The notes under the pieces: model-generated
The model's input: the letters and a program-made list of their open reading frames with translations, nothing else
Told to the model about the DNA's origin: nothing
Database searches by the model: none
Translations under genes and position numbers: made by a program
Part shown: positions 4,218 to 55,078 of the stretch, in pieces
Layout: each line of letters begins with the position of its first letter
Numbering within the stretch: position 1 is the first letter of the stretch
Source of the DNA: Escherichia coli
GTDB lineage: Bacteria > Pseudomonadota > Gammaproteobacteria > Enterobacterales > Enterobacteriaceae
DNA length: 64,000 bases
Direction: 5' to 3' (one strand)
NCBI RefSeq assembly: GCF_024298765.1
Contig: NZ_CP101210.1

Positions 4218-4289
4218 GTGCGGCTTTACCGCATACCAATAACGCTTCACTCGAGGCGTTTTTCGTTATGTATAAATAAGGAGCACACC

Positions 4290-4430
4290 ATGCAATATGC
4301 CATTGCAGGGTGGCCTGTTGCTGGCTGCCCTTCCGAATCTTTACTTGAACGAATCACCCGTAAATTACGTGACGGATGGAAACGCCTTATCGACATACTT
4401 AATCAGCCAGGAGTACCCAAAAATGGATAA
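4290..4430 (+). CDS. cIII: CIII (FtsH inhibitor), 46 aa here because of an in-frame TAA
   Basis: [46 protein letters not shown] then TAA at 4428..4430. Confidence 0.85.
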   Translation: MQYAIAGWPVAGCPSESLLERITRKLRDGWKRLIDILNQPGVPKNG

Positions 4431-35949: not shown

Positions 35950-36025
35950 TGGTGGGTCGTGCAGGATTCGAACCTGCGACCAATTGATTAAAAGTCAACT
36001 GCTCTACCAACTGAGCTAACGACCC
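35950..36025 (-). tRNA. lysQ: tRNA-Lys (UUU)
   Basis: Reverse complement is GGGTCGTTAGCTCAGTTGGTAGAGCAGTTGACTTTTAATCAATTGGTCGCAGGTTCGAATCCTGCACGACCCACCA; symbol assigned by order. Confidence 0.93.
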
Positions 36026-36058
36026 CTTGCGGGATTATGCTGCTTTAATCATTCAGGA

Positions 36059-36134
36059 TGGTGGGTCGTGCAGGATTCGAACCTGCGACCAATTGATTAA
36101 AAGTCAACTGCTCTACCAACTGAGCTAACGACCC
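36059..36134 (-). tRNA. lysZ: tRNA-Lys (UUU)
   Basis: Identical 76-nt tRNA-Lys sequence; symbol by order. Confidence 0.93.
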
Positions 36135-36182
36135 ATACGGGTGTTACCTGAAAGATTTCTACTCGGAACCAATGTTTAAAAT

Positions 36183-36258
36183 TGGTGGGTCGTGCAGGAT
36201 TCGAACCTGCGACCAATTGATTAAAAGTCAACTGCTCTACCAACTGAGCTAACGACCC
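36183..36258 (-). tRNA. lysY: tRNA-Lys (UUU)
   Basis: Identical 76-nt tRNA-Lys sequence; symbol by order. Confidence 0.93.
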
Positions 36259-36261
36259 GAG

Positions 36262-36337
36262 TGGTGGGTGATGACGGGATCGAACCGCCGACCCCCTCCT
36301 TGTAAGGGAGGTGCTCTCCCAGCTGAGCTAATCACCC
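36262..36337 (-). tRNA. valZ: tRNA-Val (UAC)
   Basis: Reverse complement is GGGTGATTAGCTCAGCTGGGAGAGCACCTCCCTTACAAGGAGGGGGTCGGCGGTTCGATCCCGTCATCACCCACCA. Confidence 0.93.
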
Positions 36338-36388
36338 GATACTGCGCTGGATACTACAAACTACTTCCACCGAACCCACAGTAATTAG

Positions 36389-36464
36389 TGGTGGGTCGTG
36401 CAGGATTCGAACCTGCGACCAATTGATTAAAAGTCAACTGCTCTACCAACTGAGCTAACGACCC
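36389..36464 (-). tRNA. lysW: tRNA-Lys (UUU)
   Basis: Identical 76-nt tRNA-Lys sequence; symbol by order. Confidence 0.93.
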
Positions 36465-36466
36465 GG

Positions 36467-36542
36467 TGGTGGGTGATGACGGGATCGAACCGCCGACCCC
36501 CTCCTTGTAAGGGAGGTGCTCTCCCAGCTGAGCTAATCACCC
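36467..36542 (-). tRNA. valT: tRNA-Val (UAC)
   Basis: Identical 76-nt tRNA-Val sequence; symbol by order. Confidence 0.93.
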
Positions 36543-36577
36543 GATACTACGCTGGATACTACAACTAACTATGTTAG

Positions 36578-36595
36578 TGGTGGGTCGTGCAGGAT
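36578..36595 (-). pseudogene. Orphan 3' fragment of tRNA-Lys (last 18 nt ATCCTGCACGACCCACCA) in the lysT-valT spacer
   Basis: tggtgggtcgtgcaggat matches only the 3' end of the tRNA-Lys genes; upstream sequence is unrelated. Confidence 0.7.
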
Positions 36596-36677
36596 GACTC
36601 GACTTCGTCTCGCCCTTCGGGCCGTTGCTGACGCAACGTTATCCTTCACGTTTTACTACCGCGTCCACCTTAGCGAT

Positions 36678-36753
36678 TGGTGGGTCGTGCAGGATTCGAA
36701 CCTGCGACCAATTGATTAAAAGTCAACTGCTCTACCAACTGAGCTAACGACCC
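36678..36753 (-). tRNA. lysT: tRNA-Lys (UUU)
   Basis: Identical 76-nt tRNA-Lys sequence; first gene of the operon. Confidence 0.93.
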
Positions 36754-36917: not shown

Positions 36918-37709
36918 TTACATCGCGTTCAGACGTTTTTGCGCCTGTTTAGCGCCATCAGTACCAGGGTATTTACTGATAACCTGCTGGTATACGGCTT
37001 TCGCTTTTGCGGTGTCACCTTTGTCCTGCATGATGACGCCGACTTTAAACATCGCATCTGCAGCCTTCGGTGACTTCGGATAGTTTTTCACTACCGAAGC
37101 AAAATAATACGCCGCATCATCTTTTTTACCCTTGTTGTAGTTTAACTGACCCAGCCAATAATTGGCGTTTGGCAGGTAAGTTGAATCAGGGTAATTTTTG
37201 ATGAAATTCTGAAATGCCACCATTGCGTCATCCTGGCGGGATTTATCCTGCACCAGCGCAATAGCTGCATTGTAATCCGTGTTTGCATCACCGCTTTTCA
37301 CCGGCGCGCCAGCATTCGCAGTACCAGCATCAGCTGTCGGCGTCGTTGATGCCGCCACACCGCTTTGATCGCCGCTGGTTGATTGCGCCGCTGCACCACC
37401 GCTGCTGAGGCTGTCGATCTGCAACAGGATCTGCTTTTGCCGCTCCACGACCTGATTCAGTTGATACTGATTTTCCTGAATCTGACCACGCAGGGAATCA
37501 ATATCGGATTGATTATCAGAGAGTTGTTGCTGGAGTTGGGTTAAAAGCTGGCTGTGAGCATTAGAAATACGCTCAAGTTGAGTGACGCGGTCTTCGACCG
37601 AGCCTGAGCCGACACTACTGATTGGTGCCTGAGCAAAAGCGGCCCAGGGGGCCGCTATACCAACCAGTAACGACAGACTCAATAGTTGATGTCTGAAGTT
37701 ACTGCTCAT
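36918..37709 (-). CDS. cpoB: CpoB (YbgF) TPR periplasmic protein
   Basis: 263-aa ORF with signal peptide, coiled coil and C-terminal TPR. Confidence 0.93.
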   Translation of the reverse strand: MSSNFRHQLLSLSLLVGIAAPWAAFAQAPISSVGSGSVEDRVTQLERISNAHSQLLTQLQQQLSDNQSDIDSLRGQIQENQYQLNQVVERQKQILLQIDSLSSGGAAAQSTSGDQSGVAASTTPTADAGTANAGAPVKSGDANTDYNAAIALVQDKSRQDDAMVAFQNFIKNYPDSTYLPNANYWLGQLNYNKGKKDDAAYYFASVVKNYPKSPKAADAMFKVGVIMQDKGDTAKAKAVYQQVISKYPGTDGAKQAQKRLNAM

Positions 37710-37718
37710 GCAATTCTC

Positions 37719-38264
<546 letters not shown>

Positions 38265-47201: not shown

Positions 47202-48317
47202 TTATAAAATGGCATCGTGAAGAGCGAGTTGATAATACTGCAATGCATCAGCGTCCTGTCCAGCAGTTTCATAAATTTTGGCAATGTTATAATAGGAGTT
47301 AGCGCGCATTGTCGCCGCATTTGCTCCACTGGCTAACGAGATCGCTTTACGATTTGCCCAAATTGCTTCCGCGATGTTGCCATTTTTCTGATACGCCAGC
47401 CCCAGGTTACTAAATGCCTGTCCGTAATTGCCGTCTAATTCTGTTGCCTGTTGGAAGAGTTGAATGGCTTGCTCAAGTTGACCGGTTTTATAAACAGCTT
47501 CACCTTCGCGATTATATTTTCTTGCCAGTTGAGTATCTCCACTGTTTTGCATCGCAGGTGAAGCCGGAGTTGAAGAACCCGTCGCAGGCATTATCACAGT
47601 GGCTAAATCCCTGACGCCTAATGTGGTGTCGTTAAAATTGGCGCTGGTAACAGAGTTGATATCTTCAAACTCGCCGTTTGGATTGAGTTTAAACACGGTC
47701 CAGATGTTCCCTCGTTTTCCAGCAGGGACACTATAACTACGCACCAGGGAGCTCCCTACATAAACAAACACTTTTGCCTTACTGGCAGAGAGATAATTAC
47801 TGTTGGGCAACCCTTTGTTGCTATAGTCCTGCACGGCATAGATGTAACTTTCGCCAAAATGCTTTTTGCTGATAGTGACAGTTTCTGATCCATAGCTATC
47901 CGTATCATCAACATCCAGATTAGCATCAGTCCCCTCTTTACTATCAAAATAGATATGTCCGCCAGGGAAGATCAAATGTGAATCAAGATCAAAAGGCTTT
48001 TCGCCCCAGCTCAAAACTACACGCATGCCATCCAGACTAGTCATTGCCGGACTAATCGCATAAGTCATGCCAGCACACGAACATTTGACCACCAGATTAG
48101 AATAGCCCTCTTTTTTGACGATCAATAAAGCATCTTGATCATCAGCAAATGTAGAACCCAGATTAACGCTGCCCGATGCATTTGTGGTTCCAGAAACAGA
48201 TTGTGCGCCATTGCGTTGCAGCGTCACCGATACTCCCTCAATGCGTTTATCTTTCACTGTCGCACTTAAAATATCGATATTTACATCGGCCGCATAAACG
48301 TCCGAATTTACACCCAT
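47202..48317 (-). CDS. Hypothetical protein with C-terminal TPR repeats in the position K-12 has mngRAB; N-terminal start uncertain
   Basis: 371-aa ORF; C-terminal ...AIQLFQQATELDGNYGQAFSNLGLAYQKNGNIAEAIWANRKAISL...ALQYYQLALHDAIL. Confidence 0.6.
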   Translation of the reverse strand: MGVNSDVYAADVNIDILSATVKDKRIEGVSVTLQRNGAQSVSGTTNASGSVNLGSTFADDQDALLIVKKEGYSNLVVKCSCAGMTYAISPAMTSLDGMRVVLSWGEKPFDLDSHLIFPGGHIYFDSKEGTDANLDVDDTDSYGSETVTISKKHFGESYIYAVQDYSNKGLPNSNYLSASKAKVFVYVGSSLVRSYSVPAGKRGNIWTVFKLNPNGEFEDINSVTSANFNDTTLGVRDLATVIMPATGSSTPASPAMQNSGDTQLARKYNREGEAVYKTGQLEQAIQLFQQATELDGNYGQAFSNLGLAYQKNGNIAEAIWANRKAISLASGANAATMRANSYYNIAKIYETAGQDADALQYYQLALHDAIL

Positions 48318-48454
48318 CAGGGCCAGAGCAACCGGCAGAACAATTTTCTTCTTGTATAAATGCTTTTACAGAACGGAGAGGGGATATTTTGCCGGGCATT
48401 ATTGCGCAGAAGATGGGAGAAAAGCAGTGGGCAAACTTTTCAGATTAGTGCCCG

Positions 48455-48556
48455 AATAAAAAAGGCCATCATAAGATGGCCAACCATGTCGAAACCGACA
48501 GCCCTTCGCCCCTCCTGTAGAGGGAAGCGGCGAGGGCTATTTCTTATTACAGATAT
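48455..48556 (-). ncRNA. sdhX: SdhX (RybD)-like 3'UTR sRNA of the sdh-suc operon with intrinsic terminator
   Basis: About 100 nt downstream of sucD stop ending in ggccatc..gatggcc hairpin plus T-run; boundaries approximate. Confidence 0.55.
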
Positions 48557-49426
48557 TTATTTCAGAACAGTTTTCAGTGCTTCACCGATATCCGCCAGGC
48601 TGCGAACGGTTTTCACGCCTGCGGCTTCCAGAGCAGCGAATTTCTCATCCGCAGTCCCTTTACCACCGGCAATGATCGCACCTGCGTGACCCATACGTTT
48701 GCCTTTCGGCGCAGTCACACCAGCGATGTAACCCACAACTGGCTTGGTAACGTGCTCCTTGATGTACGCCGCTGCTTCTTCTTCAGCGCTACCGCCGATC
48801 TCACCGATCATCACGATCGCTTCGGTCTGCGGATCTTTTTCGAACATTTCGAGGATGTCGATAAAGTTAGAGCCAGGGATCGGGTCGCCGCCGATACCAA
48901 CGCAGGTCGACTGACCGAAACCGTAATCCGTGGTCTGTTTAACCGCTTCATAGGTCAGCGTACCGGAACGGGAAACGATACCCACTTTACCCGGTTTGTG
49001 AATGTGACCCGGCTGGATACCGATTTTGCATTCCCCCGGGGTGATAACGCCTGGGCAGTTCGGGCCGATCATACGAACGCCTGCTTCATCCAGTTTCACT
49101 TTCACCGTCAGCATATCCAGCGTCGGGATGCCTTCAGTGATGGTGATAATCAGTTTGATGCCTGCATCGATAGCTTCCAGAATGGAGTCTTTGCAGAACG
49201 GTGCTGGTACGTAGATAACAGAGGCGGTAGCGCCAGTAGCAGCAACAGCTTCACGCACGGTGTTGAACACTGGCAGGCCGAGGTGGGTAGTACCGCCTTT
49301 ACCTGGGGTTACGCCGCCAACCATTTTAGTGCCGTATGCAATGGCCTGTTCTGAGTGGAAAGTCCCCTGGCTACCGGTAAAGCCCTGGCAGATAACCTTG
49401 GTGTTTTTATCAATTAAAATGGACAT
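48557..49426 (-). CDS. sucD: Succinyl-CoA synthetase alpha subunit
   Basis: 289-aa [48 protein letters not shown]. Confidence 0.97.
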
Positions 49427-54904: not shown

Positions 54905-55078
54905 TGTAGGCCGGATAAGGCATTCACGCCGCATCCGGCGCTGTTTGCCTGATGCGACGCTTGCGCGTCTTATCAGGCCTACGGTTTCTGCATTTCTTTT
55001 GTAGGCCGGATAAGGCGTTCACGCCGCATCCGGCACTGGTTGCCTGATGCGACGCTTGTGCGTCTTATCAGGCCTGGG
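54905..55078. repeat. REP/BIME cluster in sdhB-sucA intergenic region
   Basis: Two copies of gtaggccggataaggc..cacgccgcatccggc..gcctgatgcgacgctt..gcgtcttatcaggcc units. Confidence 0.85.

Follow-up and report, generated by a model that had tools for sequence, protein, structure and literature searches.

The window, which is the whole stretch of 64,000 nucleotides of Escherichia coli DNA that was analysed, carried sucD on its minus strand (48557..49426) as the last gene of the sdhCDAB-sucABCD operon, and the mRNA of this gene is the parental transcript of the element described here. The sucD ORF encoded 289 aa and was annotated as sucD in both Nissle 1917 and CT282. Its product was identical to K-12 SucD in 289/289 residues, and the two genes differed by 26 nucleotides, all of them synonymous. 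Upstream of sucD, and also on the minus strand, lay ORFs of 388, 405 and 933 aa; in Nissle 1917 and CT282 the corresponding run of genes was labelled sucA, odhB (sucB), sucC and sucD.

The element began at the first base past the sucD TAA stop and shared the strand of sucD, with the minus-strand sequence 3' of the stop reading AUAUCUGUAAUAAGAAAUAGCCCUCGCCGCUUCCCUCUACAGGAGGGGCGAAGGGCUGUCGGUUUCGACAUGGUUGGCCAUCUUAUGAUGGCCUUUUUUAU. The initial annotation had placed here about 100 nt ending in a GC hairpin and a U-run; both were present, the hairpin as GGCCATC/GATGGCC (48481..48464) and the run as TTTTTT (48463..48458). The coordinates proposed, 48455-48556, were right within one base, the K-12-equivalent span being 48456-48556. 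Beyond the element there was a co-directional ORF for a TPR-repeat protein, followed by cydA.

The host strain was of the Nissle/LF82/APEC type. A 22-kb piece of the window was 100% identical to avian/poultry isolates such as CT282 and APEC17, and identity to Nissle 1917 was 99.1% along 12 kb.

Several other elements were recorded elsewhere in the window. Two adjacent Rfam naRNA4 (REP/BIME-type) matches (54909-54979 and 55004-55074, plus strand) lay in the sdhB-sucA intergenic region just upstream of sucA, on the strand opposite the operon. A cluster of seven tRNAs (Lys and Val in the CT282 annotation) with an RtT RNA match (35953-36753, minus strand) had just upstream of it a full-length match to the CpoB/ybgF thermometer (37680-37818, minus strand; 153.7 bits), and together they are the standard tol-pal-cpoB-lysT neighbourhood. 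The lambda cIII thermoregulator element of Rfam was matched over its full length (4277-4335, plus strand; 88.5 bits), which indicated a lambdoid prophage segment close to where the window begins, past the gal/mod side of the region; there were no prophage genes in the examined stretch of CT282, a 100% identical strain.

Identity, fold and conservation of the element

In K-12 MG1655 the ncRNA sdhX (b4764, 'small regulatory RNA SdhX') occupies the 101 nt directly 3' of sucD (NC_000913.3, 765050..765150). The full-length form of 101 nt aligned with the window (48456..48556, minus strand) ungapped and with 97/101 bases identical, and the homology between the window and K-12 ended exactly after the terminator tail. 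With sdhX positions numbered from the first base past the sucD stop codon, the four substitutions from K-12 to the window were A45G (48512) and U46G (48511) in the 5' hairpin (both in its 3' arm), G83U (48474) in the terminator loop, and G100A (48457) in the tail past the U-run. The whole katG arm and the terminator stem were unchanged from K-12. The initial annotation had proposed alignment to the K-12 seed region as a check; when this alignment was run, the seed UUCGACAUGGU, G62 (48495) and C34 were identical, and the seed was thus conserved. Positions 62 and 34 of the window being G and C, respectively, the numbering used by Miyakoshi et al. 2019 (PMC6393394) fits the window sequence.

Homology to K-12 sdhX therefore settled the identity of the element, and the SdhX architecture that had been attributed to the sucD 3'UTR was borne out by the ungapped match. 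It can be held with high confidence that the segment 48456..48556 of the minus strand is sdhX, encoding the 3'UTR-derived SdhX (formerly RybD) with its published mechanism. The identification was correct but already known, and the biology is not new.

The 101-nt sequence had a predicted fold of -44.2 kcal/mol, compared with -27.2 +/- 3.5 kcal/mol for shuffled sequences (z = -4.85; 0/200 shuffles as good). The window and K-12 alleles shared a three-part fold: a long 5' hairpin whose loop was CUCUACA, a seed region that was largely open but where a weak 4-bp helix of GUCG with CGAC was predicted to be able to form, and the terminator hairpin. The 5' hairpin (positions 19-57; 48500..48538, minus strand), which is the variable, E. 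coli-specific part, appeared in both the MFE and the centroid structures with outer arms AGCCCT/AGGGCT. In the predicted fold, A45G and U46G converted the U31-A45 pair to U31-G45 and replaced the G29-U46 pair by C30-G46; the bulge was shifted from C30 to G29, and the stem was therefore kept. The Rho-independent terminator hairpin GGCCAUC-UUAU-GAUGGCC (48464..48481, minus strand) had a perfect 7-bp stem with 5 GC pairs and a 4-nt loop. It was followed by a U6 tail and then AU (48456..48463, minus strand), presumed to be the 3' Hfq-binding module by extension from findings in K-12 and Salmonella (PMC6393394).

Identity of the 5' hairpin as a REP/BIME repeat was considered and rejected: a query with the hairpin matched a median of 1 site per genome (maximum 2). 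RepRanger (PMC12306157) listed no REP for sdhX.

Among 5426 complete E. coli genomes, the sdhX locus was found in 5425, with a median of one per genome. A 30-nt block comprising the seed and the 5' arm of the terminator (positions 53-82) was identical in 5366/5426 genomes, and the 3' 45 nt with the window states U83 and A100 occurred in 1120 genomes. Differences from K-12 were fewer in sdhX (4/101) than at the synonymous sites of sucD (26/~215; pS = 0.12; Fisher p = 0.023). This lower divergence is consistent with purifying selection acting on the 3'UTR.

Annotation sources gave little trace of the element. No Rfam family matched sdhX at the gathering score, and relaxing the cut-off to E <= 10 yielded chance matches only, to the terminator part of RyhB (16.2 bits vs 55) and to a fungal snoRNA; as an SdhX model was absent among the Rfam hits, this is no argument against SdhX. 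No sdhX annotation was present in the three PGAP RefSeq E. coli records inspected (NZ_CP022686.1, NZ_CP184040.1 and NZ_CP095798.1). The name was given only in the MG1655 reference record NC_000913.3, and in a second MG1655 record (NZ_AKVX01000001.1) sucD was the only feature beneath the match. Automated annotation thus appears to miss this well-characterised sRNA, and in view of the missing PGAP annotation in these three records and the missing Rfam match, its recognition requires homology to K-12.

Downstream neighbourhood

The initial annotation had noted that the sequence downstream of the element differed from that of K-12, where mngR follows, and this was confirmed. In K-12 the convergent mngR has its stop codon 2 nt beyond sdhX and is followed by mngA, mngB and cydA. 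In the window mngRAB was absent, and its place was taken by the TPR-repeat ORF (47202..48317, minus strand; 371 aa; Pfam TPR_1, TPR_2 and TPR_12), which lay outside the sRNA and started 138 nt past sdhX. About 1.3 kb between the TPR ORF and cydA carried no long ORF in the window. The CT282 record annotates the TPR ORF as a normal CDS, and that of Nissle 1917 flags it as a pseudogene, with an internal stop; in strain 1438 its length was 397 aa.

The direct junction of sdhX with the TPR gene occurred in 546/5426 genomes, including Nissle 1917 and LF82, and the TPR gene as such in 1104 genomes; the configuration is a common strain polymorphism of E. coli. Strain 1438 carried both sets of genes, in the order sucD-sdhX-mngR-mngA-mngB-TPR-cydA, and its mngRAB genes were flanked by the sdhX terminator GGCCATCTTATGATGGCCTTTTT and a terminator after mngB, GGTCATCTCCGGATGGCCTTTTT. 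The latter, compared as GGTCATCtccgGATGGCCTTTTT, matched the sdhX terminator at 19/23 positions (0/1000 shuffles as good). The sequence of the window past the sdhX terminator was homologous to that of strain 1438 past the mngB terminator (window 48318-48481; strain 1438, L004, 163-359 and 5790-5930; minus strand).

As mngRAB was bounded by two similar terminators, the window resembles either the product of a deletion or a pre-insertion state. Comparison of these sequences suggests that mngRAB was deleted between the two terminator copies, or that the window has kept the state that preceded mngRAB insertion. Under either history sdhX was intact, and the host strain retained the full regulator despite a rearranged downstream neighbourhood.

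Seed, target sites and the proposed mechanism

The seed UUCGACAUGGU (positions 64-74; 48483..48493, minus strand), with the core CGACAU, matched exactly the published seed, which lies just 5' of the terminator and whose core complements codons 1 and 2 of ackA (PMC6393394). In that study the strictly conserved stretch of SdhX was covered by an alignment of eight species (Figure 1A), and compensatory mutations were used to establish that G62 is required to repress fdoG and that C34, in the E. coli-specific upstream region, is required to repress katG.

The ackA, katG and fdoG genes of the host genome are outside the window, and the target sites were accordingly deduced from those of K-12 and from how little they vary within E. 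coli. On K-12 ackA (-40..+30), the seed paired, as UUCGACAUGG with CCAUGUCGAG, through 10 contiguous pairs across the AUG (-15.3 kcal/mol). The energy of this duplex alone was only moderately distinctive, as 13/1000 shuffled seeds did at least as well. The region -20..+20 of ackA was identical in 5423/5426 E. coli genomes, and the site is therefore almost certainly present in the host strain; the figures from ~5400 genomes thus quantify the invariance of both the SdhX seed and its ackA site. The katG-pairing arm GCUUCCCUCUACAG (positions 29-42, including C34; 48515..48528, minus strand) was identical to K-12 in its 14 nt and paired with CUGUAGAGGGGAGC of K-12 katG, at about -22..-9 in the Shine-Dalgarno region, through 14 contiguous pairs (-27.3 kcal/mol).

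A scan of the 3'UTR for the RNase E-type motif RN|WUU found it once only, as GGUUU at positions 61-65 (48492..48496, minus strand). Cleavage at GG|UUU would fall between G62 and U63 (48494) and would leave a 3' fragment of 37-39 nt, a predicted size that matches the 38-nt SdhX2 of PMC6393394. At a computed -13.3 kcal/mol (z = -3.86), the 39-nt form had a 13-nt single-stranded seed with the terminator and the U-tail 3' of it, a predicted layout that is the usual one for an Hfq-dependent sRNA.

[quoted passage not shown] RNase E would then free it from the sdh-suc mRNA as forms of ~101 nt and ~38 nt, and the single-stranded seed 5' of the terminator would pair, with Hfq, around the ackA start codon and repress the translation of this acetate kinase gene. 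Expression of the TCA-cycle operon would thereby be coupled to acetate and acetyl-phosphate metabolism, a connection already established for SdhX. Further targets in E. coli are fdoG, reached via G62, and katG, reached via the upstream arm around C34. By extension from the experiments in K-12 and Salmonella, RNase E processing, Hfq binding and repression would be expected to take place in the host strain as well.

Two other explanations were weighed against this reading. The element might act in cis only, as a terminator or stabiliser that protects the sucD mRNA, and have no role in trans. A hairpin with a U-run is a generic terminator, and the pattern was not enriched in the region over shuffled sequences (2 terminator-like patterns seen vs 2.8 expected), so that the pattern alone was within chance; moreover, a role in cis does exist, since removing the 3'UTR in its entirety reduced SucD protein (PMC6393394). 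However, the seed, flanked by the 5' hairpin and the terminator, is an exact match to the experimentally validated one of K-12, and the seed block was invariant in ~99% of E. coli genomes as against a 12% difference from K-12 at sucD synonymous sites, which a bare terminator would not need. A role in cis is also compatible with the sRNA role and not an alternative to it, and an exclusively cis-acting element is accordingly very improbable. Even less credible is the production of SdhX from its own promoter inside sucD, in the manner of MicL within cutC, instead of by processing of the operon mRNA: the one weak sigma-70-like match in sucD (49002..48975, minus strand; 9/12 positions) was ~420 nt upstream, promoter-like matches (7 vs 3.8 +/- 1.7 by chance) were within about two standard deviations of expectation, and neither a transcription start site nor a conserved promoter was reported to have been found for SdhX, with dependence on RNase E shown in Salmonella (PMC6393394).

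Variation of the katG arm and comparison with known systems

The sole mildly new point was allelic variation affecting the katG arm, and its computed effect was small. The computed cost of opening the arm was 8.0 kcal/mol for the window allele and 6.3 kcal/mol for the K-12 allele, a difference of ~1.7 kcal/mol, with all 14 pairing bases kept. A third allele, from strain 1438 (L004 5821-5921, minus strand), had U36C and U46G relative to K-12; U36C introduced a mismatch inside the 14-nt katG duplex, with a computed energy of -22.5 vs -27.3 kcal/mol. The possibility that A45G and U46G strengthen the hairpin and so sequester the katG arm was considered and rejected: both alleles already pair C33/C34, and only the bulge moves. 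That natural alleles of the 5' hairpin tune the katG arm strain by strain is a doubtful proposition on these computed energies, although a conceivable one. If it were true, control of catalase by SdhX would differ among E. coli lineages while control of ackA would be fixed.

The presumed general design of SdhX, an mRNA tail released by RNase E with a terminator and U-tail as its Hfq module, is that of CpxQ, SroC, NarS and MalH (review PMC9438474); SdhX differs from them in parental mRNA, seed and targets, and has no sequence relationship with them. SdhX1 (87 nt) and SdhX2 (38 nt) of Salmonella Typhimurium (PMC6393394) share with it their origin in the sucD 3'UTR, processing by RNase E (presumed for the window copy), the seed UUCGACAUGGU and ackA as the primary target. 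The Salmonella sRNA has U at the site that is G62 in E. coli and in the window, and fdoG is therefore not repressed by it, and it lacks the katG-pairing arm, which was kept in the window (PMC6393394). Compared with K-12 sdhX, the window copy differed in its four substitutions and in its MFE (-41.3 kcal/mol for K-12 vs -44.2 kcal/mol for the window), and was alike in its place after sucD, 101-nt length, predicted fold, seed, G62, katG arm and terminator stem.
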